Below, piece by piece: positions 1,744 to 61,085 of a stretch of DNA of 64,000 bases (position 1 is the stretch's first letter; every line of letters starts with the position of its first letter). Position numbers and translations under genes: made by a program. This stretch comes from Wickerhamiella versatilis (Eukaryota): contig JAQOWU010000001.1 in the NCBI GenBank assembly GCA_030867685.1, positions 744,001 to 808,000 on the forward strand. Reading direction: 5' to 3'. Below the pieces are notes generated by a model that ran no database searches, was not told the DNA's origin, and saw only the letters and a list, made by a program, of their open reading frames with translations.

Positions 1744-3411
1744 ATGGATTGGGCACGAGCGGACCGGTGGCATTCGCCATCATCACGCGAGGAGTCTGAG
1801 GAGCCTGTGCATCTAGGGAGGCATAGCGATGATTCCCTAGCAATTGAGCAAACGTTTTCCGACAATGCTAGGATTGAACGAATAGCATCAAATGCCTCCA
1901 GTGCCACAGGAAAGCTGTATCGACAACTTTCGCACCACCCTTTAGACGATTCTGGTGCACAAGACGCAAGAGAATTGGAAAAGCCAGGACATAATGAAGT
2001 CGACTATCCAGAGGGTGACTTCATTCGGATAAATATTAATGACAACAAACATCCTTATACCTGGAGTACATTGAAAAAGATAGCACACACAAGTGCTTAT
2101 GGTTGGACTACTTTTACTACACAATTCACTGCCTCAATCCTTGCTCCTTGCATTCATCAGATGGCATCAGAATTTCATACCGGTGATGAAGTAGGAATGT
2201 TAGGCTTCTCGATTATTTTAATTGGGAATTCTCTAGGTCCCTTATTCTTTGCGCCGCTGAGCGAAATTTACGGCCGGAAGCTTGGGGTTTTTGTACCTTG
2301 TTTTATATCAGGAATCTTTATGTTGTTTACTGCTAATGTGACAAGTATTCCGGCAGTGGTAGTGTTTCGCTTTATAGCTGGATTTTTCTCCGCCGCGCCA
2401 ATTGTTACGGCTGGAGGTGCCCTAGCCGATCTTTGGGCACCAAAACATCGTGCTGCAGCTATGGCATTTTACTCCACAACCATTACTATCGGAAGTGGAT
2501 CTTCCCCTGTGTTAGGTGCGTTGCTTACCTCAACTGGTGGTTATGGATGGAGATGGGCGTGCTGGTTGGGTGGTCTGCTTCAAGTTTCGGTAGCTTTGGT
2601 AAACTTATTACTGCTCAGCGAAAGCTATTTGCCGGTACTAGAGTCGCGGGAGGCAAAGCGCCTCAGGCTCGAAACTGGCTATTGGTCGCTGCACTGTGAC
2701 AGTGATGAATGGAGACTCACAGCTGGGGAATTCATTCATGTTCACTTTGCAAGGCCTGTATACTTGTTCATAACGCCCATAATTTTTTTGATGGTTAATT
2801 ACAGCTCTTTCGTTTTTGGGGTTTTCTTTCTCGTTATTTCTTCGGTCGGAGACTTATTTGAAGAATACCATGACTTTGCCTTTGTTACATCATACCTGCC
2901 GCTTTTTGCTGTCACACTTGGATTTGCCCTGGGAAGTGTAATCAACGTTATCGGGTCCACACGGTATGCAAGACTTACTGACAAACTAGGGCGTAAAGCC
3001 GATCCGGAAGAGAGACTTGTGAGCATGATGGGTCTATCCTGGACCATGCCTGCAGGCTGCTTTATCTATGGTTGGACATTATATCAGCATGTGCACTGGA
3101 TCACGAGCTGTGTTGGACTTTTGCTGGTTGGTGCTGGCTTGGCAGTCATCTTTCAGGGCTGCTTAGTGTATATGATCGACTCCTATCCCAGGTTTGGCGC
3201 TAGCGCTATTGCTACAAATACTTTTGTGCGCAGTATTTATGCTGGAGTTTTTCCATTATTTGCCAGGCAAATGTATAGCGGGATTGGCCCCCACTGGGGA
3301 AATTCCTTACTGGGATTTGTTTCGCTTGCAGCAGTACCAATTCCGTGGATTTTCTTCAAATATGGTCCAAAAATACGACAAAAGAGTCGATATGACGACT
3401 TTTTAACTTAA
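1744..3411 (+). CDS. MFS drug:H+ antiporter, DHA1 family (TPO/FLR1-like)
   Basis: Hydrophilic N-tail then ~12 TM segments; motifs PYTWSTLKK, GPLFFAPLSEIYGRK, ESYLPVL, PEERL. Confidence 0.85.
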   Translation: MDWARADRWHSPSSREESEEPVHLGRHSDDSLAIEQTFSDNARIERIASNASSATGKLYRQLSHHPLDDSGAQDARELEKPGHNEVDYPEGDFIRININDNKHPYTWSTLKKIAHTSAYGWTTFTTQFTASILAPCIHQMASEFHTGDEVGMLGFSIILIGNSLGPLFFAPLSEIYGRKLGVFVPCFISGIFMLFTANVTSIPAVVVFRFIAGFFSAAPIVTAGGALADLWAPKHRAAAMAFYSTTITIGSGSSPVLGALLTSTGGYGWRWACWLGGLLQVSVALVNLLLLSESYLPVLESREAKRLRLETGYWSLHCDSDEWRLTAGEFIHVHFARPVYLFITPIIFLMVNYSSFVFGVFFLVISSVGDLFEEYHDFAFVTSYLPLFAVTLGFALGSVINVIGSTRYARLTDKLGRKADPEERLVSMMGLSWTMPAGCFIYGWTLYQHVHWITSCVGLLLVGAGLAVIFQGCLVYMIDSYPRFGASAIATNTFVRSIYAGVFPLFARQMYSGIGPHWGNSLLGFVSLAAVPIPWIFFKYGPKIRQKSRYDDFLT

Positions 3412-3686
3412 TCTCGCCCGAAAAGACAATATTATCATATTTATTGCCATTAGAAAATGGAGCATATCTCTGTGTCCACTCGACATTTTTTTTCTCTCTG
3501 TGTATAGGTGAATTTTTATGTCTGTAGCTCGTAATAATCCAATCTTGATATCATCAAGTCTTATCGTGTAAGATTGAGTTCCTTCACTTTATATTTTAAA
3601 ACGTTGAGGGTGCGCAGCAGCCAAGAGTCATCTCATCCACTTGGAAGTCACTGCTGACATATCTTGTCATTTCGTGTTATCTCTCC

Positions 3687-6143
3687 ATGAGACGAATGGG
3701 GCTTAAAGCACCTTCAGCGCTTTTTTCGGCTGTAGTGCGTGGGTTTGCGTCTAAAGTGACGCAGTCTGCGGCAGCTGGTACTGGTATGCATAATGGGTTT
3801 GATCCTAAAAGTGTTGAAAATCTCAGTACACGAGAACGCGATATTGTTGAGAAACGTCAGAAGCTCCTCGGGCCATCTTATCAACTAATGTATGAGCGGC
3901 CTGTCGAGATTGTTCGCGGTAAGGATGTTTACATGTACGATAATGATGGAAATCCGTATCTGGACTGTTACAACAATGTAGTATCAGTAGGCCACTGCAA
4001 CCCTCGGGTTATCGAGGCTGTTACGAAACAGATGTCCACTTTAAACACTCATACACGCTATATGGGTGAGAATATTTTGAACTATTCTGCTCAACTTCTG
4101 TCTACTTTTGAAAAAGAGCTTGGTCGTGTTATGTACACATGCAGCGCTAGTGAGGCAGTAGATCTTGCTTTAAGGGTAGCGAAATTCAACTCGGGGGGTA
4201 CTGGTATCATTGTGACTGATTATGCTTATCATGGCACAACAGACCGTGTTGCCGCAATTTCATCCACCGGCGGTAAGTATGTACCACTGGACGTTGCTGT
4301 CCGCACTGTGCGTGCGCCCGACTCATACCGCTGTGATGATGTTGAACAGCGTTTGGCAGATGATATAGAGGCAGCAATAGCTGATATGGAGAGACATGGT
4401 ATTAAGTTCGCTGGATTCATAGCAGATATGGTCTTCAGCACAGACGGTCTGCTCACAGAGCCTTGTGGATTTCTCAAGAAAGCCCGAGAGGTTGTGCACA
4501 AGCATGGTGGTATATTCATTGCTGATGAAGTTCAACCAGGCTTTGGTCGTACAGGTACACACATGTGGGGCTACCAGCGTCATGGAATAGTGCCTGACCT
4601 GGTCGTGATGGGAAAGCCGATGGGTAATGGTATCCCCATTGCTGCCATGGTAGCGCGTCCGGAGCTTTTGGAAGAGTTCGGTGATAAGATCCGTTACTTC
4701 AATACTTTTGCAGGCAACCCCGTCTCAATTGCTGCGGCACAGGCAGTGCTCGATGAGATTCAGGGTGGACTTTTGGAGAACTGTCGTGAAGTTGGTGAAT
4801 ATTTGCTTAACGGCTTTCGAGAAATATCTGCTGAATATCCAGAATGTATCGGTGACGTACGTGGCGCTGGTATGTATTTTGCCGTGGAGTATGTCAAGGA
4901 TCCGATCTCCAAAACACCTGACAGTGAATTGGCAGCCAAGGTAGTTAGTGAACTACGAGATCGTCGAATTCTTATAAGCACCAGTGGTCCCGAAGGAAAT
5001 TCACTCAAGATCAGACCTCTTATTTGCTTCAAGAAAGAGCATGCTGATCAACTCCTTAATGGCTTTGCTGAAACAATGGAGAAACTATGCGGCAAACCAC
5101 ATGATCCTGTAGATACTCTTGGTGCGACAGCAGCAAAGCAAGCCTTACTTAGCCCTGAAGTAGCTATTTACACGTTGAAAAATTATTACGGAATTGATGC
5201 TGTGGAAGCTAAAAAACTAGGAAGCGAGAGAGATCAGACATTCCGTATAACAGTTTCAGACGGAAGTAGGGTGCTCGCAAAATTTGCGCATCCTGCGGAG
5301 GACAGATTGGTGACGAATCTTCAGACTTCTATTTTGCGGTATATTGAAGAGAAAGATCCATCTCTTGGCGTCCCCAGAGTAATTCCGGCACTTTCAGGTG
5401 AGCTTGAGCCATACATAGACTGTGAGGGCCAGATGCGCACGGTAGTGCTTCATTCCTTTGTTGAAGGTACCATGCTCTTGGATGCACCACATTCAGTACG
5501 CCAGAGCTACAATCTGGGAGTGGAGGCAGGAAAACTTGCTAAGGCTTTGGAAGGATTCAGGCATCCAAAGCAGGATCTTGTATTATCTTGGGACCTTCAG
5601 CATGCCTCTCTACTTCGTTCCTATATGAACCTTGTTGAAAGTCCAGAGAATTATCGGAAACTTGAGCTTTGCATCGAAAACTTTGAAAGAGAAGTAAAGC
5701 CGCGCTTAGGCTCGCTAAGGAAGCGGGTTGTTCACAATGATCACAGCTTCCATAATGCTTTTGTCAACCCTGAAGCTCCTGATGAAATTGTGGGAGTTAT
5801 AGATTTTGGTGATGCCGTATCAACTCAGGTCATCAATGATGTAGCTATTGGCGCCTATTATCAACTAGGTGTTGGTGGATTGCTCGATGGTGCTTTGGCA
5901 TTTGCCCGGGGATACAATGATGTAGTGCCCTTGAGTAAGGAGGAGCGAGGTCTTCTTTTCGATCTGATCTTGACACGACTCTTTGTGAGCATCATCAATG
6001 GACTTTGGCGGGCCCATGAGGCACCTGAGAATAAGGACTACCTGTTGCGACTAGCAGGTCATGATTGGAAGCATCTAGATGCTCTTATGTCTTTGAGACC
6101 TGAAGAAGGACGGGAGAAGTTTGCTAGTTTAGGTGAACACTAA
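3687..6143 (+). CDS. Fusion: class-III PLP aminotransferase/phospho-lyase (N) + APH/hydroxylysine-kinase-like phosphotransferase (C), with putative mitochondrial presequence
   Basis: N domain: YLDCYNNV, LNTHTRY, FIADEVQPGFGRTG, MGKPMGNG, LKIRP. C domain: GSERDQTF, HNDHSFHN, GVIDFGD. Arg/Ala/Ser-rich, acid-free 33-aa N-extension. Confidence 0.85.
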   Translation: MRRMGLKAPSALFSAVVRGFASKVTQSAAAGTGMHNGFDPKSVENLSTRERDIVEKRQKLLGPSYQLMYERPVEIVRGKDVYMYDNDGNPYLDCYNNVVSVGHCNPRVIEAVTKQMSTLNTHTRYMGENILNYSAQLLSTFEKELGRVMYTCSASEAVDLALRVAKFNSGGTGIIVTDYAYHGTTDRVAAISSTGGKYVPLDVAVRTVRAPDSYRCDDVEQRLADDIEAAIADMERHGIKFAGFIADMVFSTDGLLTEPCGFLKKAREVVHKHGGIFIADEVQPGFGRTGTHMWGYQRHGIVPDLVVMGKPMGNGIPIAAMVARPELLEEFGDKIRYFNTFAGNPVSIAAAQAVLDEIQGGLLENCREVGEYLLNGFREISAEYPECIGDVRGAGMYFAVEYVKDPISKTPDSELAAKVVSELRDRRILISTSGPEGNSLKIRPLICFKKEHADQLLNGFAETMEKLCGKPHDPVDTLGATAAKQALLSPEVAIYTLKNYYGIDAVEAKKLGSERDQTFRITVSDGSRVLAKFAHPAEDRLVTNLQTSILRYIEEKDPSLGVPRVIPALSGELEPYIDCEGQMRTVVLHSFVEGTMLLDAPHSVRQSYNLGVEAGKLAKALEGFRHPKQDLVLSWDLQHASLLRSYMNLVESPENYRKLELCIENFEREVKPRLGSLRKRVVHNDHSFHNAFVNPEAPDEIVGVIDFGDAVSTQVINDVAIGAYYQLGVGGLLDGALAFARGYNDVVPLSKEERGLLFDLILTRLFVSIINGLWRAHEAPENKDYLLRLAGHDWKHLDALMSLRPEEGREKFASLGEH

Positions 6144-6688
6144 AGTCTAGATTTTCAGCGAATAAAATAGCTTAGTGTATTAATTGCTGCTATTATATTT
6201 AGTCAGTGATAAACGAGACTGTCAACATTAAAAACTATTTCAACGGCCATAATGATTGGCTATGAACATGCGCCAATAGAAAAGAGCATCAGACCCGGTG
6301 TCTTTGATCTGACACTAGTATCCATTACTATTCTTGCAAATTGCACCCAAAAGTGAGTATATCATGGTTGAGTTGCTCATCACGGAAATAATCTATAAGA
6401 AACGTAAGATACTGAATTCGACAGCTATAAGACATGGAAGCAAATTGGCAGGTAGTCCATCCATAATAATATTAAAATGTGGTTTAGGATATTTATCAGT
6501 CTCTACAGTGTATATTGCGGATCTCTACTAAATGCTATATGATATTAAGTCTCGCAGACGGTAGGTAGGAATCAGAAAATGCTGGCACGCGCTGACAAAA
6601 TATTCGTGATTTTCAACATCTTTTCTAGATAAGAAAGATCAATTGTTGCCCCATATACTATAAGCTTATTTTCTTCATTTATATGCTA

Positions 6689-14003: not shown

Positions 14004-15455
14004 ATGCTGGTTGCTGGAGTTGATTCGTCGACCCAAGCCACTAAAGTGCTTATAGTTGATGCTGAGACGGGTGAACAGGTTCGTTTTGGGAAATGCCGTC
14101 ATCCAGAGGGTACAGAGTGTCCCCCAGAAGTTTGGTGGGATGCCCTGAAAACAGCCATAAAAGACGCTAATGGGCTTGATGATGTTAAAGCCATTAGTGT
14201 TGGAGGGCAGCAACACGGAATGGTGGCCCTTGATGGGGAGGGTCGAGTAATTCGCCCTGCACTCTTATGGAATGACACTAAAAGTGCTGATGCGGCCCGC
14301 GATCTTGTTGAAGAAGCTGGTGGGGATCTCTATGCGAAACGAATAGGTATTGTACCCGTCACAAGTTTCACAGCTTCGAAGCTACGATGGCTCCAAACAC
14401 ACGAGCCTGAAAATGCTGCAAAAGTACGAGCAGTGATATTGCCCCATGACTATCTGACATGGAGGCTACTTGGTTATGGCCCGCGTTCAGAATCTGAGCT
14501 TGGGCCTGACTTAGAGGCCCTTGTCACAGATCGAAGCGATGCATCTGGAACTGCTTATTGGTCCAGTATGACAGATAAGTACGACTATGACATGTTCAAA
14601 TATGCCTTCAATCGTACGGCTCGCGAGGCAGGCTCAAAGGACCAAGGTGATGTCATTCTACCTCGTGTTCTCAAACCAAACGAGCGGGCAGGGGTAGCAC
14701 CCTCTGGTTTGATTGTGGGCCCGGGAGCAGGAGACAATGCAGGAGGTGCGATTGGTCTCCATGCAGTAGAGGGCGATATAATCGTATCAATTGGGACTAG
14801 TGGCACTGTTTTCACTCCTTCGCCACAACATGTAGCTGATCCAACTGGAACCGTCTGTGGATTCTGTGATTGCACAGGTAAACAGCTGCCATTGGTTTGC
14901 ACATTGAATGGCGCGAGATGCATTGATGCTGTATGCAGGATTTTGGATGTCACTTTTGACCACTTGGTTGATCTTGTAAGGCAATCGGAACCAGGGGCAA
15001 ATGGTCTGGTTTTGATTCCCTATTTCCAGGGAGAACGTACACCAAACTTGCCAGATGCCAAGGGTTCTTTATTAAACATTGATCTTCATAATTTAACCCG
15101 CCCTAATATTGCCAGGGCTTTTGTTGAAGGAGTTGTATGTTCCATGGCAGATGGCCTGGAAGCCATTCGGAGTGAAATTCCTAATGTTCCTATGAAACGT
15201 TTGATATTAATCGGGGGTGCTTCAGCAAATCCAGCGGTTCAAGAATGTGCTGCAGAAATCTTTGATAATGTACCTGTTGTAGTCCCAACGCCGGGTGAAT
15301 ATGTAGCAAGAGGCGGTGCGGCTCAGGCTGCATGGGTTTTACTTGGCTATCTTCCTAATTGGAAACTGCCGTTGGATCGCGAATTAGCCCCTAAACCTGT
15401 GAAAAAGGTCTTTCAGCAATATCTGGCAGCAAAAGAAATCTACTTCAGGTCTTAA
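14004..15455 (+). CDS. xylB: Xylulokinase, FGGY family, actinobacterial type
   Basis: LVAGVDSSTQ, ISVGGQQHGMV, RPALLWND, TDRSDASGT, GAGDNAG, SIGTSG, PYFQGERTP. Confidence 0.85.
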   Translation: MLVAGVDSSTQATKVLIVDAETGEQVRFGKCRHPEGTECPPEVWWDALKTAIKDANGLDDVKAISVGGQQHGMVALDGEGRVIRPALLWNDTKSADAARDLVEEAGGDLYAKRIGIVPVTSFTASKLRWLQTHEPENAAKVRAVILPHDYLTWRLLGYGPRSESELGPDLEALVTDRSDASGTAYWSSMTDKYDYDMFKYAFNRTAREAGSKDQGDVILPRVLKPNERAGVAPSGLIVGPGAGDNAGGAIGLHAVEGDIIVSIGTSGTVFTPSPQHVADPTGTVCGFCDCTGKQLPLVCTLNGARCIDAVCRILDVTFDHLVDLVRQSEPGANGLVLIPYFQGERTPNLPDAKGSLLNIDLHNLTRPNIARAFVEGVVCSMADGLEAIRSEIPNVPMKRLILIGGASANPAVQECAAEIFDNVPVVVPTPGEYVARGGAAQAAWVLLGYLPNWKLPLDRELAPKPVKKVFQQYLAAKEIYFRS

Positions 15456-25136: not shown

Positions 25137-25262
25137 AATCATTTTGAGCGTAAAAGTCTTTCAATATCGTCTTCCTAATCTGAGCCTGAACCTGCTGGCC
25201 CTGGCAATAAGTATCGCTATTAGACATATTGTATTATATACCTCAAAAAGCTAAATACATTT

Positions 25263-25625
25263 TTAGACTGGCTTGAAGGCGATCGCCTCTACCTCCACCT
25301 TAAAATCGCCTGCAAGAGCAGCGCCCATTGCAGTGCGTGCCGGTGGGTTGACACTGAAGTATTTACCGTACACCTCATTAAATCCACTGAAATCAGACAT
25401 GTTTGGAAGGATTGCAACACACTTAATTACATCAGTGAGTTTGCACCCAGCAAGTTCCAGGGCACTCACTAAGTTCTTCATGACTTGCTCAGTGTGTTCC
25501 TGGATTGTCGTGCCTACGATCTTGCCATCGACAACTGGAACTTGGCCTGAGATGTAAATGTAGTCACCTGCTCTCACAGCTGGAGAAAGAGGTACGTGTG
25601 AAGTGCCGTAATGAACTACTGACAT
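25263..25625 (-). CDS. RidA/YjgF family enamine/imine deaminase
   Basis: LSPAVRAGDYIYISGQVP, FNEVYGKYF, PPARTA, VEVEAIA. Confidence 0.9.
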   Translation of the reverse strand: MSVVHYGTSHVPLSPAVRAGDYIYISGQVPVVDGKIVGTTIQEHTEQVMKNLVSALELAGCKLTDVIKCVAILPNMSDFSGFNEVYGKYFSVNPPARTAMGAALAGDFKVEVEAIAFKPV

Positions 25626-26655
25626 GATTCGCTAACATGTAATCAGCGTATTAATTTATACTTAGATGTGCTTATGTAACAGGTCTTTCACATGGAGCAA
25701 CCTTCAGCGAACAACTATAATGCATACTAGGAGAATCACAGAAAGTAGGTAGAATTTCAAAATATCTTGTGTTATTCCAATTTAGGCTACAGTTTCTCTC
25801 ACAGGTCTGGTTATAATGCTTGGAATCCTCCTTCCCACCATGTCTTACTTTGTAGCCCCCCTGTCTCGCAGTTCTTATCTATTGATTTATAATCATATTG
25901 TAAGGCTGGTCTCTTGATGTAGGAACATGTAAACAGCAGATATATCTCTATTAGCTGATGCTGTTGTTTAATATTTCAGTATTCAGAGCAGAGTGCTCAA
26001 TATAATGGGTATGTAGGCACTCTTATTTAAAGTCACCTAAGTCACTTGTGCTGAAAATTCGGCCCGGCGATTAACATATTTTTCTCTGGTATGATATATA
26101 CTGTGTTGTCTAGTAGAGATATGAAGGGTTAAAGGTAAAAAAAAACAGTGAACAAAAGCTGCATACTACTAGGAATGAATTACGCTCTATTAAGAAAGAC
26201 GTTGTGATTTTACATAACCAAAGACACCCTACGGTTAGCGCGTGTAATCTGTTGAACTTTATGGCAATATTGTCTTGATTCCCTGATTTCTACCGCGACC
26301 AGTGACAAACATTCTAAGTCTACGGCTTACGGAAATTAATTCATTATGAGTAGCTCAGAATAGGTAGGTCTGTTGAAGCAGATAGGAACTGGTCCTCGAC
26401 ATTTCCATGTGGAAAGCGTCGGCAACGGAGCTACTTCGAAGAAGACTGTCAATAGCATTTAAAGACGAAGGGCTAGAAAAAAAAGCTCCTATATGTGGAG
26501 GCTGAATATATAGTCACGCATGGTTAGCCACTCCATATCTTTCCCCTATGTCATGTGATTTGGATTTGTCAAGACTTCCCTTTGACTGTGCGGTTCGCAG
26601 CCTAGCTTCGTCTGTAATTTGGCCGCACGACCTGAGGAGACAGGCGAATTACACA

Positions 26656-32513: not shown

Positions 32514-34229
32514 TTACGAAGACATTAGGAAGGGGCCATAATCAAAACTAGCTGTCTGGGGTCCGAACTTCCTAAGCCCATCTGGTGCATCAAAGGCATC
32601 AAGATGGAGTTCTAGAAGAACCAGACCATCCCAGTCTGTGGCTTTTGCTAGATTATCCTTTAACTCACCTTCCGTAGTAATTGAAGCCGTGAAAACTTTC
32701 TCGGGATGGTCTGAGAATACCTGGGGCAACTGTGTGAATTTCCAGTTGGCAATATTGTTATACTTCGATTTCCAACCGAGAATATATCTTTCAATAGTGT
32801 ATCCTTTGTTATTGATAACAAATATGATGGGCTTTACCTCCTCCCTCAGGATTGTTGAAAACTCTTGTGCCGTCATCTGGAAGCTGCCATCACCAATGAA
32901 CAGTAAATGCCGTCGCTTGGGACTAGCAAGGGTTGTTCCGAGAACTGCTGGCAGAGTGTACCCGATAGAGCCCCAAATTCCCGAGCTGATATACGTCACA
33001 TTATCCGGCATGGGTTGTGATCCCAGACCGACACTGGATGTACCTGCTTCGGCAATTACCACGTCATTCTCCTGAATAAAGTGCGACGTCAACAAAGGCC
33101 ACAGTCTGCCGTGACACAAGGAGGAGCCAGCTTCGAACTCAATCTGTTCTGATTTGTTCGCAGTAGTGTTTGTCGAAATAGGGTCAAAATCAAAATTTTC
33201 CAATTCACGACTCAAATCAGTGGCTAACTGTCTAAGAAGCTGGCGTAGAGAGACGTTATAGTAAACCTCACGGCCACCAATGATGACAGCTGGACCGGTG
33301 AGTGAGATAGTGGTCTTAACGGGCAATTTTTGGGTGAACTCGCCTGAATTGACTTCCACAAAACGGGGTTCCGTTACAATAAGGCAATCAGAAGTTTCAA
33401 TACGCTCACGCAGTGCCTCTGACTTTGTAGCTTGGCCAGCATAAACGCCGAGCCACCTTGGGCCACTTTCATTTAATATAGACTTACCCGTGGAAAGTGC
33501 TGCGTAGGGAATATCGAGAGCCTTTGAGAGGTTCTCCAGCTCTGGTCCAAGATGGAATCTTTCTGCCTCCATATCGACTAGAATTGCAGGTCTATGTGAA
33601 TTTCGAATCATTTCGGCAATGCGATTGAAAGCATATTTGAGCTGTACAGGTTCACTGGCACCAACGGCCAATGCTTCCTCTGGATGAATTTCCGGTAGCT
33701 CTAAGGTCTTGAGGTAAGTAATATCTGAGGGTACCTGCATGTAAACAGGGCGTTTCTCCCTAAGACATACCCGAAGCGCACGATCAATATCCTCTGCAGC
33801 ATTGGCTGGATGTATCATGGCTTGAGCAGCAGTAAACTGCTGATAAACCAATAAGTTGTTCTCATAGTCTCCATTTGCTAGTGAGTGGTGTAGTAACATT
33901 CGACCTTCAGTTGCATAAAGGGGAGGGGCTCCATTGATGCAAATTACCGGCACATGTTCAGCTAAAGCCCCAGCAACACCATTTAAAGCACTTAATTCAC
34001 CAACTCCATATGTGGTCAAGATGGCAGCAATACCATTTAGGCGAGCATAACCGTCTCCGGCATAGGCCGCATTCAGCTCGTTGCATGTTCCTACAAATTC
34101 AATGCCATCAACATTATTCAGTTGCTCCAAAAGAGATAGATTGAAGTCGCCTGGAACTCCAAATACATGCTTTACACCTATTTGACGGAGGCGCTTCCAA
34201 AGAAAATCACCGATCGAGTCACTTGGCAT
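32514..34229 (-). CDS. TPP-dependent 2-keto-acid decarboxylase (PDC/IpdC/KdcA family), probably bacterial type
   Basis: FGVPGDFNL, CNELNAAYAGDGYAR, TTYGVGELSA, LHHSL, WGSIGY, IGDGSFQMTAQE, NNKGYTIER. Confidence 0.9.
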   Translation of the reverse strand: MPSDSIGDFLWKRLRQIGVKHVFGVPGDFNLSLLEQLNNVDGIEFVGTCNELNAAYAGDGYARLNGIAAILTTYGVGELSALNGVAGALAEHVPVICINGAPPLYATEGRMLLHHSLANGDYENNLLVYQQFTAAQAMIHPANAAEDIDRALRVCLREKRPVYMQVPSDITYLKTLELPEIHPEEALAVGASEPVQLKYAFNRIAEMIRNSHRPAILVDMEAERFHLGPELENLSKALDIPYAALSTGKSILNESGPRWLGVYAGQATKSEALRERIETSDCLIVTEPRFVEVNSGEFTQKLPVKTTISLTGPAVIIGGREVYYNVSLRQLLRQLATDLSRELENFDFDPISTNTTANKSEQIEFEAGSSLCHGRLWPLLTSHFIQENDVVIAEAGTSSVGLGSQPMPDNVTYISSGIWGSIGYTLPAVLGTTLASPKRRHLLFIGDGSFQMTAQEFSTILREEVKPIIFVINNKGYTIERYILGWKSKYNNIANWKFTQLPQVFSDHPEKVFTASITTEGELKDNLAKATDWDGLVLLELHLDAFDAPDGLRKFGPQTASFDYGPFLMSS

Positions 34230-35766: not shown

Positions 35767-36813
35767 TCATACTTTTGCTGTCTTGTTAAAATTTCCAAAC
35801 GTAGCTATGCCGCGTGAGTTCTCGGGCATCCTTAATTCCCCATTTGAAACCTTGGTTTTAAGATATTTAAACACTTGAAGTCCTTGAGACCATATGTGGT
35901 CTCCAACTGTCATAGCAGTATAATCACTCGTACTTTTATCAGCGAATTGTGGAAGTGGTTTTACCTCTGTATGGTAGTCACAAGAGTAGAAAAGGGGGAA
36001 AGAGAAACGATCTTCTTTTACTGAACGTACGCGATGAGCTGTGGCAGTAAACTTCCCTGCCGTCATGATTTCTAATACATCGCCAATATTCACTACAATT
36101 GTTCCAGGTATCGGCGGTGCATCAATCCATTCACCACGATCATTGAGTACTTCCAGACCAGGTGCATCTGCGAGTAGAAGTGTGAACCACTCGTAATCCG
36201 TATGCTCACCGATTCCAGGAGCGTCAACTGCATCTTCGTCGTATGGATAGTGAATCATTCGCATTTTTGACGGTGGATAAGATACCAAATCGTCAAAAGC
36301 AGTTTCTTCCAATCCTAGTGCTGTTGCAAATCCTCTCCTGAGAACATTGCCTAAGGCAAAAACTTGGTCGTAGTATCCTTGAACTCTTTCTCGGAACTGG
36401 GGAATATCCGGCCATGTGTTTGGACCCACAAGAGGGGTCTCATTCTTTACAAGTGGATGATCGGCAGGGACTTCAAAGCCAACGTCAAAGGCCTCCTTAT
36501 GGTCTGGAAGACGATTCTGAGGCCCTTTGGTGTAAGACTCTTCACCCTCTGGTACAAAACCCTTGTGTGATTTTGACAGACCAATGTAATACTTCATTTT
36601 TTCTTCATATGGTAGAGAAAAAAAGTCCTTAGCAGCACTGTACAAACCCTCAATGTAGGAGTCATCGATTTTGTGTCCAGATACGTAAAGGAATCCAATG
36701 TCTCTTGATGCCTTTCCAAGTGCATCAGCCACGGATTTCCTTTGTTTTGGATCCTCAGAATAGAGACCACTGATGTCAACTACAGGGATACTTGTAAATG
36801 TTTTCTGAGACAT
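35767..36813 (-). CDS. 2-oxoglutarate/Fe(II) dioxygenase, IPNS/DIOX_N family
   Basis: IPVVDISGL, GFLYVSGH, HTD (HxD), VNIGD, ATAHRV, RFS; ATG at 36813 (the track start is TTG). Confidence 0.85.
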   Translation of the reverse strand: MSQKTFTSIPVVDISGLYSEDPKQRKSVADALGKASRDIGFLYVSGHKIDDSYIEGLYSAAKDFFSLPYEEKMKYYIGLSKSHKGFVPEGEESYTKGPQNRLPDHKEAFDVGFEVPADHPLVKNETPLVGPNTWPDIPQFRERVQGYYDQVFALGNVLRRGFATALGLEETAFDDLVSYPPSKMRMIHYPYDEDAVDAPGIGEHTDYEWFTLLLADAPGLEVLNDRGEWIDAPPIPGTIVVNIGDVLEIMTAGKFTATAHRVRSVKEDRFSFPLFYSCDYHTEVKPLPQFADKSTSDYTAMTVGDHIWSQGLQVFKYLKTKVSNGELRMPENSRGIATFGNFNKTAKV

Positions 36814-43766: not shown

Positions 43767-44438
43767 TCATTCATCAACAGTAACAAGGGCAAACCCATCC
43801 CAACCTTTACTCCCTACCGTCTGAATCACAGTTGCGTCTAGTCGGGGGTCTTCCTTTACCGCATGTAGGAATTTCTGAGCACCATTGACTCTACTATCGA
43901 CGCTTTTTTCATCCGCAACGCCACCGCTACGTACCACGTTGTCAGCGACTATCACCGTACCTTTGCGGGAAAGGCGGAGTACCATAGGTAAGTAGTTAGG
44001 ATAATTCTCCTTATCGGCGTCAATGAATATAAAATCATAAGGTCCATTTAGAGTAGGGAGGATTTCAAGTGCATTGCCACCCAGAACTTCCACCTTATCT
44101 GTGACACCAGCAAAATCAAGGTTAGATTGAGCTACCTTAGCGTGGTGTGGACTATATTCGATTGTCGTAATCTTACCCCCGGGGGGTAAAGCCTTTGCCA
44201 TCCAAATAGTGCTATATCCACCAAGCGTTCCAAGCTCTAGTACTCGCGATGCCTTCGTCATTTTAACATATTGAGCAAGAAGCTTACCTTGTGGCGCAGA
44301 AACATCGATAGCAGGAAGGCCCTCTGCTTTATTTGTTTCCAGTACTCGCTCCAAATGCCGATCGTTGGGGATCAAAATATCTGTCACATACCGGTCAACT
44401 TTTGACCATTCGTCTGATTGCTGTGGCATTCCTTGCAT
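43767..44438 (-). CDS. SAM-dependent O-methyltransferase (caffeoyl-CoA/catechol OMT family)
   Basis: VSAPQGKLL, VLELGTLGGYS, FIFIDADKENY, VADNVV, KGWDGF. Confidence 0.85.
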   Translation of the reverse strand: MQGMPQQSDEWSKVDRYVTDILIPNDRHLERVLETNKAEGLPAIDVSAPQGKLLAQYVKMTKASRVLELGTLGGYSTIWMAKALPPGGKITTIEYSPHHAKVAQSNLDFAGVTDKVEVLGGNALEILPTLNGPYDFIFIDADKENYPNYLPMVLRLSRKGTVIVADNVVRSGGVADEKSVDSRVNGAQKFLHAVKEDPRLDATVIQTVGSKGWDGFALVTVDE

Positions 44439-48746: not shown

Positions 48747-50051
48747 ATGAGCCTCTCCAACGAATATGTCAAAACGCTCGATCGGAACAACGTATTCCAT
48801 TCCTGGTCTGTTCAAAGTGCAAATGATCCTGTGGTAATCAAGGGAGGTGGTGGCTCTAAATTGTGGGATTATAATGGGAACGAATACCTTGATTTTTCAA
48901 GCCAGCTAATATACACAAATTTGGGTCATCAGCATCCCAAAGTGATTGCCGCTATAAAGGCTCAAGCTGATACGTTGGTAACTATAGCCCCTGGTCATGC
49001 CAATCTCGCTCGTGGTGAGGCTGCAGCACGTATTCTCTCGCATGTGCCAAAAGATAGTTTCTCCAAAGTTTTTTTTACGAATGCTGGTGCAGATGCTAAC
49101 GAAAATGCTATTCGGATGGCTCGTAGTTTCACAGGTCGTGATAAAATATTATCAGGCTACCGGTCGTATCATGGAAATTCTGGTACCTCAATTGTAGCTA
49201 CGGGAGATGCCCGCCGTATTCCCAATGAGTTTAGTCGTGGCCATGTCCACTTTTTCAATCCTTATCTCTATCGCACTGAATTTTGGTCTGTAGATGAGGA
49301 CCAAGAGTGCGCTAGAGGCCTGCACCATCTGAGAAGAGTGATAGAATGCGAGGGTCCAGGATCTATCGCAGCAATTATTCTTGAGAGTATTCCTGGTACT
49401 GCGGGTGTGCTGATTCCCCCCAAAGCCTACCTCAAAGGTGTTCGACAGTTAGCAGATGAGTTTGGCATCCTGCTTATTCTCGATGAGGTTATGGTCGGAT
49501 TTGGGCGTACAGGTAAATGGTTTGCATTTGAACATTTTGATGTGGTTCCAGATTTGATCACGTTTGCAAAGGGAGTGAATAGTGGATATGTTCCAGCTGG
49601 TGGTGTTATAGTCTCTAATAAAGTCACTGACCATTTCCATGATCTAATGTTTTATGGTGGGTTGACGTACTCAGGCCATCCACTTGCGATGGCAGCCATA
49701 GTGGCTACGATTGATGCTATGGAGGATGAAAAAGTAGTGGAAAACGCTGAGAGGATTGGCAAAGAGGTGATAGGCCCGACTTTGAATTCTATGGCTAAAG
49801 AATGCAAGCTTATCGGTGAAGTTAGAGGCATGGGTGTCTTTTATGCATTGGAACTTGTTAAAGATCCAGTGAGCCGCGCACCGCTGGATGATCTGTGTAT
49901 GAAGAAGTTTAAGGCTGGAATGATCAAGCGAGGCTTGCTTCCCTTCGTTGCGCAAAACCGCTTGCACATAGCACCACCGTGTAATATTACTCCTGAAGAA
50001 ACAAAAGAGGGGCTTAAAATTATTGCGGAAGCTCTGAATGATATATCCTAG
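48747..50051 (+). CDS. Class-III omega-aminotransferase (taurine/beta-alanine/diamine type), actinobacterial-like
   Basis: VFHSWS, YLDFSSQL, GHQHP, YRSYHG, DEVMVGFGRTG, TFAKGVNSGY, GGLTYSGHP. Confidence 0.85.
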   Translation: MSLSNEYVKTLDRNNVFHSWSVQSANDPVVIKGGGGSKLWDYNGNEYLDFSSQLIYTNLGHQHPKVIAAIKAQADTLVTIAPGHANLARGEAAARILSHVPKDSFSKVFFTNAGADANENAIRMARSFTGRDKILSGYRSYHGNSGTSIVATGDARRIPNEFSRGHVHFFNPYLYRTEFWSVDEDQECARGLHHLRRVIECEGPGSIAAIILESIPGTAGVLIPPKAYLKGVRQLADEFGILLILDEVMVGFGRTGKWFAFEHFDVVPDLITFAKGVNSGYVPAGGVIVSNKVTDHFHDLMFYGGLTYSGHPLAMAAIVATIDAMEDEKVVENAERIGKEVIGPTLNSMAKECKLIGEVRGMGVFYALELVKDPVSRAPLDDLCMKKFKAGMIKRGLLPFVAQNRLHIAPPCNITPEETKEGLKIIAEALNDIS

Positions 50052-51094: not shown

Positions 51095-51940
51095 ATGATT
51101 CCTAAACTTGCTTCCTATGAACTCCCTAAATCAGAGGAAATTCCTCGTGGAAGAGTTGATTGGCCTTTAGAACCTGCTAAGGCTGCGCTGCTCATACATG
51201 ATATGCAAGACTATTTTCTAGACTTTTGGGGTGAAGACAGCCCTTTCACAAAGTCTTTGGTTCAAAACATACAACGTTTAAAGGAGTTCTGCAAGTTGAG
51301 AGATATCCCTGTCTATTACACCGCTCAACCAGCTGAGCAAAGCCCAGAGGATAGAGCGTTACTGAATGATATGTGGGGTCCGGGGATAGCGACTCGGCCA
51401 CACCGAAAGAATGTTACCAAGGCCTTAGAACCGCAAGAAAACGATATTGTATTGACCAAGTGGCGCTATAGTGCATTTCAACGTTCGAACCTGGAAGAAC
51501 TACTCAAGAAATCAGGTCGTACTCAGTTAATTATTTGTGGCGTTTACGCGCATATTGGCTGTATGACAACTGCACTCGATGCATTTATGCGCGATATAAA
51601 GCCTTTTCTGGTGGCTGATGCATTGGCAGATTTTTCGAGAGAGAAGCACATCACAGCTTTAGAAATCGTAGCCGGATCCTGTGGAAGAGTGATCAAACTG
51701 GATAACGTGGTTGGCGGTCTACCTCAGAGCATAGAAGAATTACGCGAGCAAGTCCTAGTGTTGCTTGATGATGAAGATGAGGCTCCAGAAAATGATGAGA
51801 ACCTCGTGGACTTTGGGCTGGATTCCGTCCAAATTATGGCCACGGCTGCCAAGTGGCAGAAAATCAAACCGGAGATAGACTTTATCAAGCTCGCCCAGAA
51901 TCCTAGTATTACTTACTGGTGGTCCCTTTTACAAGATTAG
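51095..51940 (+). CDS. entB: Isochorismatase / aryl carrier protein
   Basis: IPKL, LLIHDMQDYF, DRALLNDMWGPG, KWRYSAF, GVYAHIGC, DAFMRDI; ArCP FGLDSV. Confidence 0.95.
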   Translation: MIPKLASYELPKSEEIPRGRVDWPLEPAKAALLIHDMQDYFLDFWGEDSPFTKSLVQNIQRLKEFCKLRDIPVYYTAQPAEQSPEDRALLNDMWGPGIATRPHRKNVTKALEPQENDIVLTKWRYSAFQRSNLEELLKKSGRTQLIICGVYAHIGCMTTALDAFMRDIKPFLVADALADFSREKHITALEIVAGSCGRVIKLDNVVGGLPQSIEELREQVLVLLDDEDEAPENDENLVDFGLDSVQIMATAAKWQKIKPEIDFIKLAQNPSITYWWSLLQD

Positions 51941-52172
51941 ATTCAATGCGGCAGCAAGCGAATTCTCTTGTCTGCTATAACATAGCTTTTCTTTTTGTGG
52001 AGAATATTTCTCTTAAAGACAAGGATCACATGTGAACATAGTCCGTGTACGTCTGTCTACATACTTCAACCCACCAGATATTTTAACGACTGGCATATAG
52101 GCGGTTAGGCTTAGTAAGGTATCTCTTACAGACATTGTAGATGCTACGATTGCTATTGAAGAGCCAGGCAGA

Positions 52173-52895
52173 ATGAGTATTTTCGACCCCATAAATTCAT
52201 CAGCTTGTGATGAGCTTATTCAAAAAATCGAATGGGGTACTCTTGTATCCCATCCGCAAGTTTACTATTGCAAGGTCAACTTTAATGATTCTGCCTATGA
52301 TGACGACCACTACTCCAATTACGGTATTGAATATCCCAGCCACATTAGGCGTTCTGTATTGAAGCGACGTGCCGAGCATCTGGCAGGCCGGTTCTGCTGT
52401 CAATATCTTTTTCATGCACTTCAATTACCGGGTGCTGTTTCACACCACGAGGATAGGTCACCCTGCTGGCCTCCAGGAGTCGCAGGAAGTATTTCACATT
52501 GTAAAGGTCACTCCATCGCCCTTGTAACTAATAAGCAGGATAAGCATCCTGGCGTGGATGTCGAAATTCTGGATAAGCAAACCCTCAGTGAATGCGCAGA
52601 TATGTTTTCCTCCAATGATGAACGAAACATGGTAAGACGAAAACTCGACTCTGAGGCTCACAAAGAACTCCTTATTTTCTCTGCGAAAGAAAGTTTTTTC
52701 AAGGCAGTTTATCCACAGGTGAAGTTTTTTTTCGGTTTTGAATATGCTACCATAGTAGATGTTAATGCTGAAAAAAAAACATTTATATTAGAATTAACTA
52801 AAACGTTGATACCAGCGAGATTGGAGAAAGGAATGCACTGGGTTGGAAATTTCAATATCGAAGGCGAGCTTATTACGACATGTATAGTGTGCTAA
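52173..52895 (+). CDS. entD: 4'-phosphopantetheinyl transferase
   Basis: KRRAEHLAGR, WPPGVAGSISH, GVDVE, FSAKESFFKA; position in ent cluster. Confidence 0.9.
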   Translation: MSIFDPINSSACDELIQKIEWGTLVSHPQVYYCKVNFNDSAYDDDHYSNYGIEYPSHIRRSVLKRRAEHLAGRFCCQYLFHALQLPGAVSHHEDRSPCWPPGVAGSISHCKGHSIALVTNKQDKHPGVDVEILDKQTLSECADMFSSNDERNMVRRKLDSEAHKELLIFSAKESFFKAVYPQVKFFFGFEYATIVDVNAEKKTFILELTKTLIPARLEKGMHWVGNFNIEGELITTCIVC

Positions 52896-53074
52896 ATTTC
52901 TAATTCGGGATAGAGATTAAAAAAAGCAGCATTATAATTTTTCATTTCATTTCATTTGATTTTGTCCTATGTCTCATCGGCACACAGCATTCCTCTGTTT
53001 CATAACGACGGTAACCCTAAGCCTGAAGATTGATTATCCAATAAATCTATCGGACAAATCAATCTTTTTGGTCA

Positions 53075-56000
53075 ATGGCATTGCCCCTTGTGGCAGCGCA
53101 ACCAGGAATCTGGGTAGCTGATCAGCTATCCCCCTATCAAAATGCATATATGATAGCTCACTACTTGGATATTCTTGGTGACTTGAATGTCGATGCTCTC
53201 TGCGCGGCCATAATGAGTGGTATGATGGAGGCAGACACCTTACAGATGCACTTCACAGAAGTAGATGGAGAGCCTAAACAAATACCTATGGGCCCGCTGT
53301 TACTTCCCTCGCCTATATATAAGGACTTGCGCGCTGATGTTAATCCTCTTCATTCGGCACATGCGTGTATGTATGATGATTTGAAAGGCAATAGGCGGCT
53401 GATGACTGGGAATAATCTCAGTTGTAACGTAATATTACGTCTAGATGAGAGGCATTATGTCTGGTACCAGCGCTACCATCATCTCCAATTAGATGCGTTC
53501 AGCTTTACTGCTTTGACTCGTCGTATCGTGGAGCTTTATAGTGCGTCTGTGAGAAATTTGGAACCCAGAATGACCCCATTTGTGCCTTTTGCAAACGTAG
53601 TACAAGAGTATGCCTCGTATTGGAATTCTGAGAAGAGATTTAAAGATGCAGCATATTGGACAGGCGTGTGCAAATCTTTGCCAGAAGCTGTATCTCTTTC
53701 GCCCAGATCTCTAAGTGGAGAGACTCCGACAACAAATATTTTGCGACATGCTACTACATTTGATCCCAGTACAATGCGTACCCTGTTCTCAGCTGGCGAG
53801 GCAGCTGGCATAAGAAGTGTTGACCTTGTGCTAGCTATAATTGCTCTTTGGCTGTTGAAGCTTTCTGACAGTAAATCTATGGGTGTTGGATTTATATTCA
53901 TGCGTAGAGCTGGTTCAGAAGCATTGAATGCTACTGGGCCAGTAATTAATGTTCCACCTATGTGCGTAAGTCTGTGTGAGACTATACTCTCAATGGCGAA
54001 AAATATAAATAAGACTATCAAGGAAATGCGTCGTCACCAACGCTACGATGCTGAACAGATTGTGCGGGATACCAAACGCAGCTGGGATAGCGAACCCCTG
54101 TATGGTCCTGTGATTAACTTTAAGGCTTTCGATTATAAACTCGACTTTTCGGGGGTTAAATGCACTACGCATCATTTAGCTTCAGGACCAGTACGTGATA
54201 TGGAAATCACCATATTCCTTGACGACGAGGCGAATTGCTCGGTAGAGATTCTTGCCAACGCTCAACGGTATAATACAGATATTCTGGAGAAACATCTAAA
54301 CCGACTTCACCTCCTGGTGGATCAATTTGCCACCAATATTGACCTTTCGTGCGAAAAGGCTGATGTATTATTGCCTGAAGAGAGAAAATTAATCTCTGAG
54401 ACGAATTCAACCGAGGTGCCAATTTCGAAGGATACGCTTGCCAGCCTCATTCAGAAGCAATGGCTCGCCACACCAGAGAGTCCTGCATTGCAAGACATGC
54501 GACACTGTTTGAGTTATAGGCAGATGATGCTACAGGCTAATTCTTTGGCGCAGTGTTTGGTAACGCGGGGTATTAGTCCAGGAAGCATTGTTGCCGTGGC
54601 ACTGCCCCGCTCCATATTTTTAGCAGTTGCTTTACAAGCAATAATTCTAGTTCGTGCGGCTTGGCTTCCGTTGGATACGGGATACCCAGAATCACGGTTA
54701 AAGTTCATGCTTGAAGATGCACAACCGTCGCTTCTGATCACAAATACCGATGAGCTCAGCAGAATATCATTTGCTGCACCAGTCGAAACGTTTATATACG
54801 ACTCATTGCTCCCAGAAGTGGAATCATTATCACTTCCATCTGTCAAACCGGATGATAGGGCATATATAATTTATACGTCAGGTTCTACTGGTCAACCCAA
54901 AGGGGTAGTTCTCAACCATCAAGCGATAGTCAACCGATTGCTGTGGATGCAAGATCAATATGGTCTCAAAACGCATGACAAGGTGTTACAAAAGACTCCA
55001 TGTAGTTTTGATGTCTCAGTGTGGGAATTCTTCTGGCCAATAATCGTTGGTGCTCGTCTGATAATGGCACCACCAGAAGCGCACCGCGATCCAGAGCAGC
55101 TTCAGAAGCTTATATTGGACCATCAAATAACCACGATTCATTTTGTTCCATCAATGCTGGCGTCTTTTGTTAATGTTTTGGGCCAGAATCAGGACTGTCA
55201 AAGTCTTTCACGTGTATTCTGCAGCGGTGAAGCCCTTTCAACTGACTTGGCAAAACAATGGCAAAATAAAATGCATGTTCCATTATACAATTTGTATGGG
55301 CCGACCGAAGCAGCGATCGATGTTGCTTTCTATCCTGCTTTTGGTGCCAGTCTGGAAGCAGTAAGTACCCATACCGTGCCTATTGGAGTACCTGTTTGGA
55401 ACACATCACTGCATATATTAGATTCACATTTATGTCCAGTTCCTCTCGGGATTATTGGTGAACTCTACATTGAGGGGGTGCAACTCGCAAACGGGTACCT
55501 GAATAGATCCAGCCTGACTGCTAGCTCCTTTATTAAAACTCACGTCGACAAAATACTCTATCGTACTCATGACTTATGCCGGCGATTGGACAGTGGGTCC
55601 ATTGAATTTATTGGCCGAAGTGATCACCAGGTTAAGATTCGTGGACAGCGTATCGAGCTCGGTGAGATAGATCAAGTAATGCAGCATCTTGATGGTGTTT
55701 TGCAGGCTGTCACTGTACCACAACTTTTAGGAAAGTATAAAGAGGGTGATTTTCATGATGGACGGCAGCTAGTGAGCTATGTAGTTCCAGCAACCGACAT
55801 CAAGCTTGACGCAGAAAAACTACTTAGGGAAGCAGCACGGTTCTTACCATCGTATATGGTGCCATCAGTACTCGTCTTTATGACTGAACTTCCTCTAGGA
55901 AACACAGGAAAGCTCAATCATCGGGCCTTACCTCTTCCAGATATCAATTGGCAACAGCAGCATAGGGAAAATGGACGTCTTCCTAATGCTGGCTTAGAGC

Positions 56001-57001
56001 AAGTGGTTGCTAATGCATTTAAAACTTTACTTGGTTGTGAAACTGTTTTTGCAGATGATGATTTTTTTTCCCTTGGTGGCCATTCGCTTCTCGCAGTACG
56101 CTTAGCTGCATTATTGCGGCAGGAATTGAAATTGCCTGTTGCTATTGGGCAAATAATGCAATCATCTAAAGTGTCAAGCTTAGCTGCACAATTGAGCGAT
56201 ATTGAGAACCAAGAAGCTTGGGAAAACGCAGGATATGAGACTCTTTTACCATTTCGAGTTAGTGACGATGATAGTAAGGGCCCAACATTATTCTGCATTC
56301 ATCCTGCCTCGGGATTTGCGTGGCAGTTTAGTATTCTCCAACGCTATCTGGAAAAGAATTGGTCTATTGTAGGTGTTCAATCGGCCCAGTCCGATGGACC
56401 TCTTGCTACTACTGCTTCATTGACTGACTTGATCGAGTCTCGATATGAAGCTATCCGCACAAAGCAGAAGCACGGCCCGTACCATTTGATTGGTTACTCA
56501 TTGGGGGGAACAATAGCTCATGGTGTGGCTGCTAGACTGAGACAGTCAGGCGAAGTAGTGGCGTTTCTAGGATTGCTCGACACTTGGCCGCCAGAGTCTC
56601 AGAACTGGGACGAAAAACTTGGTAAAAATAATGTGGATCAGGCTGTAATTGATGAAATGATGCGTGAAAGGCAGGAGTTTTGTCAAGCTCAACAGGGTTT
56701 GTTCGATAATTCAGAAAAACTTTTCAACGTTATTGAGAATAACTATGCCAGTGCAGTGCGATTACTTGCCACTGCTCGTAGTAGCTATTTTGATGGCAAA
56801 GCGACTTTATTCGTTGCTGAGCGCACATTACCTGCCAATGTCGACATTAAGGATGTCTGGTCTCCTTGGAATAGGCAGCTGGAAGATCTTACGGTCGACT
56901 GTTCACATGTAGATATAATTTCACCGGCAACATTTGAAACCCTCGGCCCGCAAATCGCTGAAGTTTTACGAGCTAAAGAAGAGGCATCAAAGCTGGCTTA
57001 A
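53075..57001 (+). CDS. entF: Enterobactin synthetase component F, NRPS C-A(Ser)-T-TE
   Basis: LPLVAAQPGIW, RYHHLQLDA, YTSGSTGQPKG, FDVSVWEFF, LYGPTEA, GGHSLL, HPASGFAWQF, GYSLG, HVDIISP. Confidence 0.95.
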   Translation: MALPLVAAQPGIWVADQLSPYQNAYMIAHYLDILGDLNVDALCAAIMSGMMEADTLQMHFTEVDGEPKQIPMGPLLLPSPIYKDLRADVNPLHSAHACMYDDLKGNRRLMTGNNLSCNVILRLDERHYVWYQRYHHLQLDAFSFTALTRRIVELYSASVRNLEPRMTPFVPFANVVQEYASYWNSEKRFKDAAYWTGVCKSLPEAVSLSPRSLSGETPTTNILRHATTFDPSTMRTLFSAGEAAGIRSVDLVLAIIALWLLKLSDSKSMGVGFIFMRRAGSEALNATGPVINVPPMCVSLCETILSMAKNINKTIKEMRRHQRYDAEQIVRDTKRSWDSEPLYGPVINFKAFDYKLDFSGVKCTTHHLASGPVRDMEITIFLDDEANCSVEILANAQRYNTDILEKHLNRLHLLVDQFATNIDLSCEKADVLLPEERKLISETNSTEVPISKDTLASLIQKQWLATPESPALQDMRHCLSYRQMMLQANSLAQCLVTRGISPGSIVAVALPRSIFLAVALQAIILVRAAWLPLDTGYPESRLKFMLEDAQPSLLITNTDELSRISFAAPVETFIYDSLLPEVESLSLPSVKPDDRAYIIYTSGSTGQPKGVVLNHQAIVNRLLWMQDQYGLKTHDKVLQKTPCSFDVSVWEFFWPIIVGARLIMAPPEAHRDPEQLQKLILDHQITTIHFVPSMLASFVNVLGQNQDCQSLSRVFCSGEALSTDLAKQWQNKMHVPLYNLYGPTEAAIDVAFYPAFGASLEAVSTHTVPIGVPVWNTSLHILDSHLCPVPLGIIGELYIEGVQLANGYLNRSSLTASSFIKTHVDKILYRTHDLCRRLDSGSIEFIGRSDHQVKIRGQRIELGEIDQVMQHLDGVLQAVTVPQLLGKYKEGDFHDGRQLVSYVVPATDIKLDAEKLLREAARFLPSYMVPSVLVFMTELPLGNTGKLNHRALPLPDINWQQQHRENGRLPNAGLEQVVANAFKTLLGCETVFADDDFFSLGGHSLLAVRLAALLRQELKLPVAIGQIMQSSKVSSLAAQLSDIENQEAWENAGYETLLPFRVSDDDSKGPTLFCIHPASGFAWQFSILQRYLEKNWSIVGVQSAQSDGPLATTASLTDLIESRYEAIRTKQKHGPYHLIGYSLGGTIAHGVAARLRQSGEVVAFLGLLDTWPPESQNWDEKLGKNNVDQAVIDEMMRERQEFCQAQQGLFDNSEKLFNVIENNYASAVRLLATARSSYFDGKATLFVAERTLPANVDIKDVWSPWNRQLEDLTVDCSHVDIISPATFETLGPQIAEVLRAKEEASKLA

Positions 57002-61063: not shown

Positions 61064-61085
61064 TGCCAAATGACAAATATCGGTT

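Follow-up and report, generated by a model that had tools for sequence, protein, structure and literature searches.

A lyase-first fusion of a phospho-lyase and a kinase, of probable bacterial origin and with a presequence-like leader, in the yeast Wickerhamiella versatilis

How does a budding yeast come to carry, in a single polypeptide, two enzymes that bacteria encode in neighbouring genes, and in which order and for which compartment were they joined? This question is raised by an open reading frame (ORF) at positions 3687..6143, forward strand, of a 64,000-nucleotide stretch of the Wickerhamiella versatilis genome (assembly GCA_030867685.1, contig JAQOWU010000001.1, positions 744,001 to 808,000), hereafter called the window. 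In the 818 amino acids (aa) that it encodes, a pyridoxal phosphate (PLP) dependent phospho-lyase domain of class III precedes a small-molecule kinase domain. We consider it probable that this protein came from bacteria, serves catabolism with both of its domains and is a mitochondrial copy, its halves having been joined in swapped order. The sequence, its transcription, the conservation of residues, kinship and the orders of genes are what we observed; activity, substrate, location and fusion site are inferred from them.

The ORF had been described as uninterrupted in an initial annotation made from sequence alone, and this was borne out by its translation, with a single stop, and by RNA reads covering it continuously, without splice joints or a dip in the linker (depth 76-135 in the linker bin). 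The reads, mapped to 3387-6386, come from four runs representing at most three samples of two studies under the same species label, and from a strain other than that of the assembly, with about 70 fixed differences. A trough in depth (5-17) at 3487-3686 separates the ORF from the upstream gene for an MFS transporter (1744..3411, forward strand). In the two PolyA runs, reads have loose ends at positions 3659, 3661 and 3669, with extra letters which we take to be template-switch oligo, and these ends indicate probable transcript 5′ ends (3659..3669, forward strand) upstream of the first ATG, and no ATG occurs within 3600-3686. The mRNA therefore includes the leader described below and is separate from that of the MFS gene. 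Its 3′ end lies approximately at 6190..6210, with RNA depth of about 5 or less past 6186 and 12 molecules in one run starting on the minus strand at 6199. Among 40 strain differences listed, 34 fall in the ORF and affect 33 codons, 31 of them synonymously and 2 nonsynonymously. Composition gives no signal of transfer relative to the neighbours, GC content at third codon positions being 0.39 for the fusion gene against a neighbour median of 0.40.

By Pfam profiles, aa 72-462 belong to Aminotran_3 (E 3.5e-67) and aa 509-740 to APH (E 2e-17). The phospho-lyase domain as a whole extends over aa 24-470 (3756..5096), and phospho-lyases are its nearest solved structures, 5G4I (E 2e-103) and 6TOR (E 4e-98) being followed by a next match at 6e-49; the same two entries lead the fold search, made with a full-length model of mediocre quality. 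The former is the A1RDF1 phospholyase of Arthrobacter aurescens (5G4I/5G4J), the best match in sequence and fold (42% identity in the fold alignment), which differs from the fusion in being a stand-alone enzyme of 446 aa, with neither kinase nor leader. The putative phosphate-site residues Y95, R124, K441 and R443 align with positions 61, 90, 412 and 414 of 5G4I and are conserved in 84-85 of the 85 lyases compared; the corresponding Tyr61, Arg90, Lys412 and Arg414 of A1RDF1 reportedly bind phosphate according to Cuetos 2016, a study cited in PMC6750192. Human ETNPPL (6TOR; 40% identity) belongs to a different lineage, with V and K where the fusion has Y95 and R443. The PLP lysine K310 (MGKPMG) and the D-E-V-Q motif (D280, Q283) of the Aminotran_3 fold are present, no transaminase or racemase scores more than half as high as the phospho-lyases, and no cut-off of an NCBIfam transaminase model is reached by the protein. 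Lyases are rare among class-III enzymes, and the phospho-lyases are named as such (PMC8154272). Judged by its sequence, the lyase half is a class-III phospho-lyase.

The APH-fold kinase (aa 486-818; 5142..6143) retains its catalytic residues, namely the N-lobe lysine K532, the HxDxxxxN motif (H683-N-D685, N690) and the DFG motif (D706-F-G-D709), and a kinase model built from a 64-row alignment reached a predicted local distance difference test (pLDDT) score of 95. The best profile matches of the kinase alignment are 6EF6 (E 1.6e-15) and the homoserine kinase 2PPQ. The entry title of 6EF6 is aminopropanol kinase, and this microcompartment-associated enzyme, although the best profile match, is a separate protein; by structure it ranks 21st by fold E-value, with a TM-score of 0.73 by target and 16% identity. 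No match was obtained when the kinase was searched against the PDB as a single sequence. The automatic JGI name "hydroxylysine kinase" is attached to 11 of 80 stand-alone relatives, and our trees contain no HYKK sequence. The assignment as a class-III phospho-lyase with an amino-alcohol kinase is thus supported by structure matches, residues and profile hits, and all the motifs first named for it are present: DCYNN (Y95), THTRY (R124), LKIRP (K441, R443), HNDxxxxN (683-690) and DFGD (706-709).

The initial annotation further proposed a mitochondrial-type leader of 33 aa ending at a second methionine (position 3786). Bacterial lyases align from residue 24, so that the actual addition is about 23 aa (3687..3755, forward strand), and the methionine at 3786 is in fact the third (3687, 3696, 3786). 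It corresponds to the conserved internal methionine of the bacterial G-M-Q-N-G-F-D motif, ten residues ahead of which the bacterial lyases start. The presequence-like character of the leader was supported by its composition, by the transcript start upstream of it and by synonymous strain changes, mitochondrial import being predicted. It is rich in arginine and lysine, has a net charge of +5 with no D or E (elsewhere in the protein, 0 of 752 33-mers lack both), and carries an R-2/R-3 type cleavage motif, R18-G-F-A. All five strain differences in codons 1-33 are synonymous (chance 0.002, from the 40 differences listed). Three related fusions of the same clade, starred in our trees, likewise have arginine-rich, acid-free leaders of 30-63 aa, one of which matches the cleavage pattern; nine other scored fusions (P0012 being left out) have a near-bacterial start or an extension without presequence features.

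The genome contains two further versions of this gene pair. A second lyase-kinase fusion of 796 aa, 57% identical and without leader, lies about 69 kb away (C1:816768-819158; L073 3769-6159) and is directly followed by a RidA-family gene, a neighbour that fits an enamine-forming lyase. That gene has no match in 145 bacterial loci, which gives no support to its arrival with the operon. An unfused lyase gene followed after 551 bp by a kinase gene is found at C3:74541-77461 (L072 4042-6962). This C3 pair has long branches and substitutions of lyase H122 by N and of kinase W635 by P, and the row taken to be its lyase shows near-zero transcripts per million in the published expression table. An origin of the C3 pair by fission, backed in single-domain trees (kinase 95/88) but left without resolution in joined trees, is not claimed.

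The closest kin of both halves are encoded in an operon of Brenneria, Klebsiella and Pseudomonas, with genes for an amino-acid ABC transporter, a GntR regulator, a phosphotransferase and a class-III aminotransferase, which differs from the fusion in that the genes are separate and the kinase comes first. The enterobacterial and Pseudomonas pairs are 70-73% identical to the fusion in the lyase and about 48% in the kinase. The kinase gene precedes the lyase gene in each of the four loci nearest to the fusion (in Brenneria, on a plasmid of Klebsiella, on a metagenome contig and in Pseudomonas), at a spacing of 2 bp in Brenneria and Klebsiella and of 81 bp in Pseudomonas, and three of the four operons include an amino-acid ABC binding protein, annotated in the Klebsiella record as of lysine/arginine/ornithine type. 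The 61 loci from prokaryote genomes comprised 43 with separate genes in kinase-then-lyase order, 15 with the lyase only, 3 divergent and none lyase-first; among 80 metagenome loci kept of 571 matched, 50 were kinase-first, 30 had the lyase only and again none was lyase-first. Kinase and lyase genes were adjacent on the same strand in 93 of these 141 loci. Matches, trees and operons support the proposal that both halves descend from bacterial genes which were separate and adjacent. The companion proposal, that operon neighbours already in lyase-kinase order were fused, is not supported by the order of the four closest operons; as none of the 141 loci is lyase-first, an origin by simple read-through fails for the donor operons sampled, and because the closest operons are kinase-first, either a swap of order or an unsampled donor is required.

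Fused relatives are predominantly of the opposite order. The 120 matches listed include 47 kinase-first fusions, 59 lyases alone and 14 lyase-first fusions; these 14 all lack a source name and include the same gene from another strain as well as the paralog of this genome. Among 150 representatives, 141 were kinase-first, 6 had the lyase only and 3 were lyase-first. These counts agree with the earlier statement that bacterial fusions have the kinase N-terminal. The bacterial kinase-first families PRK06148 (E 3.6e-200) and PRK06149 (E 1.2e-138) hold both domains in one chain in the opposite order, and the protein, which falls short of their cut-offs (667 of 1128 and 464 of 973), is by these profiles not a member of either; some kinase-first matches also bear a Peptidase_M23 domain. 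Clusters with both domains in the ESM Atlas, where domain order is not shown, are only bacterial, and a search among shorter proteins gave no named eukaryotic lyase among 120 matches listed. The architecture is not widespread in fungi according to the tabulated counts of the published orthogroup OG0011028, with 6 genes in the clade of Wickerhamiella and Starmerella (W/S; frequency 0.5), 3 from Pezizomycotina (0.0625) and none elsewhere (PMC13376923).

Separate genes in lyase-first order were encountered in 2 of 279 plasmid records, both rhizobial, with spacings of 6 and 14 bp; the E-value limit of this search hides most kinases, and the figure is not a count of gene order. Both pairs are distant from the fusion (lyase 44-46%, kinase 22-29% identity). 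One of them, on a Rhizobium binae plasmid (L176 5983-8292), lies directly upstream of homoprotocatechuate (hpa) genes, a neighbourhood which suggests breakdown of an aromatic amino alcohol. The lyase is matched at 60-80% by 40 plasmid records, nearly all from Klebsiella; on a Klebsiella michiganensis plasmid (L174 3934-11212) the transporter-GntR-kinase-lyase-EamA block adjoins insertion sequence elements. In samples of 401 genomes each, 27 of the order of Brenneria were matched, with 70% identity reached in Brenneria alone, and the close subfamily was present in one genome of the Pseudomonas sample; the Megasphaera-type lyase was matched in 0 of 401, in a sample that had no positive control and is uninformative.

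In trees of 85 lyase and 55 kinase rows, hand-chosen from the matches, the 14 fusions, the C3 pair and the enterobacterial pair form the starred clade, which in the lyase tree also takes in Pseudomonas and Megasphaera-type lyases. The enterobacterial pair is nested among the fusions in all four trees. This suggests, from sequence relationships, that the lyase-first fusion has more than one origin, and at least one independent fusion event besides the main group is possible. We hold it a tentative view, somewhat short of an even chance, that the fusion arose several times in eukaryotes through separate transfers of the same bacterial subfamily. In its favour, a single clade for 15 rows was rejected on the joined alignment (p-AU 0.013 in the approximately unbiased (AU) test, LG+G4), and P0229 (771 aa), also lyase-first, belongs to a far lineage (38% and 28% identity), its ETNPPL-like lyase having V in place of Y95 and K in place of R443. 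However, the AU tests of the single domains do not reject one clade (kinase 0.22, lyase 0.16), several rows are of unusual letter make-up, and the rejection under LG+G4 was not repeated with a mixture model. Junction lengths also favour one event for most rows. The junction itself, of about 15 aa (5097..5141, forward strand), resembles the N-terminal tail of a bacterial kinase, and the distance from the K-x-R to the E-R-D motif is 73 aa, compared with the 75 that the two Brenneria proteins would give if joined end to end; in 10 of the 14 fusions, across three subclades, it is 72-74 aa, so that most fusions look, at sequence level, like one near-exact butt joint.

Such constancy also speaks for a fusion that predates the yeast copy, having been made in another eukaryote or in an unsampled bacterium whose lyase and kinase genes stood in that order at close spacing, with the yeast adding only duplicates and leader; this seems to us possible but somewhat doubtful. 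The rhizobial pairs show that closely spaced lyase-first genes exist, but they are distant from the fusion, and no named bacterial lyase-first fusion appeared among the 120 listed matches or the 150 representatives. A clade of 13 rows, leaving out P0014 and P0046, was not rejected (p-AU 0.21), these two having been set aside as a group chosen after the tree was seen. Four fusions, P0011, P0013, P0014 and P0046, have no source name (a metagenome scan for P0013 confirmed 0 of 24 candidates), and three Pezizomycotina entries occur in the published orthogroup; against this, the unfused yeast pair with its 551-bp spacer could be a pre-fusion state. P0046 departs from the alignment shortly beyond the D-W motif of the kinase, as a translation running on into an intron would, which suggests a eukaryotic host. 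It is tempting to speculate that eukaryotes repeatedly rebuilt a kinase-then-lyase operon as a lyase-first protein (in the yeast group, P0014/P0046 and P0229), with the yeast keeping three stages, namely the reversed pair still unfused and one fusion each for cytosol and mitochondria, and a two-compartment pathway, a scenario that we regard as unlikely. If true, a two-compartment pathway for hydroxylysine or amino alcohols would be new for budding yeasts in the literature searched.

What would such an enzyme do? In the reading that we prefer, of a bifunctional catabolic enzyme, the C-terminal kinase would use a nucleoside triphosphate to phosphorylate a hydroxyl next to a primary amine, and the N-terminal domain would bind the amine at the PLP cofactor on K310, with Y95, R124, K441 and R443 holding the phosphate; elimination would follow, with release of ammonia, phosphate and an aldehyde. 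The fusion would most likely be imported into mitochondria by way of its leader of about 20 aa, the leaderless paralog serving the cytosol. Its ancestor would have been a gammaproteobacterial-type pair whose halves were swapped relative to the sampled operons and then joined almost end to end. The clear lead of the phospho-lyases among both sequence and fold matches, the amino-acid ABC binding protein of the closest operons and the RidA-family gene beside the paralog were counted in favour of this reading. The hydroxylysine pathway of HYKK and PHYKPL (PMC5200902, PMC8154272) is in principle the same two-step chemistry carried out from separate genes. As to the substrate, 5-hydroxylysine or a similar basic hydroxy-amino acid is our leading candidate, at only slightly less than an even chance; ethanolamine or aminopropanol appears rather unlikely, and some other substrate a little less likely still. 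Kinase-lyase coupling was reportedly described by Veiga-da-Cunha in 2012, and work of the 1970s is said to have dealt with an amino-alcohol kinase and phospho-lyase of Erwinia. The CTTATC (GATAAG) site at 3560..3565, from which nitrogen regulation had been proposed, is present but not above background, since 10 of the 35 window ORFs have such a site within 300 bp upstream, and clustering of GATAAG sites as in nitrogen-catabolite-repressed genes is not seen with this one site. In published data comparing yeast nitrogen base (YNB) with yeast extract-peptone-dextrose (YPD), which are no test of nitrogen control, the tabulated model that includes the fusion gene was unchanged (false discovery rate, FDR, 0.36) and the paralog was higher in YNB (log2 fold change -1.25, FDR 0.001).

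Several observations weigh against the reading as a mitochondrial catabolic enzyme. The literature searched gave no assay of any member of the subfamily, and copper amine oxidases and choline/ethanolamine kinases, two of each, are already encoded in the genome, so that scavenging of ethanolamine nitrogen would be less needed. With 13-20% identity to solved enzymes, the substrate cannot be read from the kinase, and the full-length model is of pLDDT 74 with a predicted TM-score (pTM) of 0.48. Short RNA reads are no proof that the fusion is one molecule, and the strain-difference test covers its 40 listed differences, with 32 further ones outside it. Finally, a pyrimidine stands at -3 of the ATG at 3687 and a purine, as in 22 of the 35 window ORFs, at -3 of that at 3786, a weak context which makes downstream initiation possible and may, on this sequence, leave room for a second, cytosolic form. 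That the leader is no working presequence, with most of the protein starting at 3786 and residing in the cytosol, we nevertheless think quite unlikely: the weak context at 3687 and 3696 and the lack of a presequence-like leader in most other fusions speak for it, but the leader is part of the mRNA, its strain changes are synonymous, three relatives have independent-looking leaders of like make-up, and a start at 3786 would lose ten residues present in bacterial lyases. It is very improbable that an ordinary omega-transaminase makes up the PLP half, with a kinase that detoxifies a drug-like compound. Pfam family names, the automatic aminotransferase names of many relatives and the fold shared with APH enzymes point that way; the low transaminase and racemase scores, the lack of any NCBIfam transaminase hit above cut-off and the consistent coupling of the kinase to a lyase gene contradict it.

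The suggestion that the enzyme is possibly undescribed holds in part. Its bacterial origin has already been tabulated: in 2026 Supplementary Data, orthogroup OG0011028 is listed among bacterial transfers, with three genes in W. versatilis, one in W. domercqiae and one in St. bombicola, four of them under KEGG Orthology entry K14286 (ETNPPL) and with the role "new function" (PMC13376923). The third W. versatilis gene is called a multidrug transporter in the tabulated data and is the only model between a glutathione S-transferase gene and a glycosyltransferase gene, so that the published model apparently merges the MFS gene with the fusion gene; separate rows are missing for entD and entH as well (PMC13376923). 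This apparent gene-model error hides the fusion gene in the published annotation. Neither fusion nor fused occurs as a word in the main text of PMC13376923, nor do aminotransferase, phosphotransferase, lyase and ethanolamine, and no description of the lyase-first fusion, its order or its leader was found in the literature searched, most subscription papers and some supplements of PMC13376923 lying outside that search. In the same host clade, an enterobactin operon transfer represents a bacterial gene set adapted to eukaryotic expression, in which the genes stayed separate, a fused polypeptide being excluded by the authors (bioRxiv 10.1101/399394). While the chemistry is established, the new features here are the reversal of order, the presence of a leader and the coexistence of three arrangements. 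Fusion of genes following operon transfer in these yeasts is said to have been treated by Gonçalves in 2019. Through this locus, yeasts of a clade known to capture bacterial genes gain a probable further catabolic route, and the passage from operon to eukaryotic gene, by a swap of order, fusion, duplication and retargeting, can be followed in a single genome that offers three arrangements for comparison. Attention is also drawn to an operon of Klebsiella plasmids that is uncharacterised.

Elsewhere in the window, a gene on the reverse strand (280-1251) encodes a bacterial-type YghU glutathione oxidoreductase with a basic, acid-free N-terminal extension ahead of the model match, which begins at residue 44; from its sequence, it is possibly a second retargeted bacterial gene. 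The enterobactin cluster entB-D-F-C-E-A-H occupies 51095-61496 and has already been published for this clade. Together with a class II asparaginase gene it reproduces the layout reported for Candida (Wickerhamiella) versatilis (bioRxiv 10.1101/399394), and the order of genes in the window agrees, in reverse, with Supplementary Data 6 of PMC13376923, a match which identifies the species though not the assembly. Further genes tabulated as bacterial transfers in the data of PMC13376923 encode a xylulokinase (14004-15455), a pyruvate decarboxylase (32514-34229), a 2-oxoglutarate-Fe dioxygenase (35767-36813), an O-methyltransferase (43767-44438), another class-III aminotransferase (48747-50051) and an asparaginase II (62400-63503). 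According to the published table, a RidA gene with high expression lies at about 25200-26500; it falls below the 150-aa ORF limit used here.

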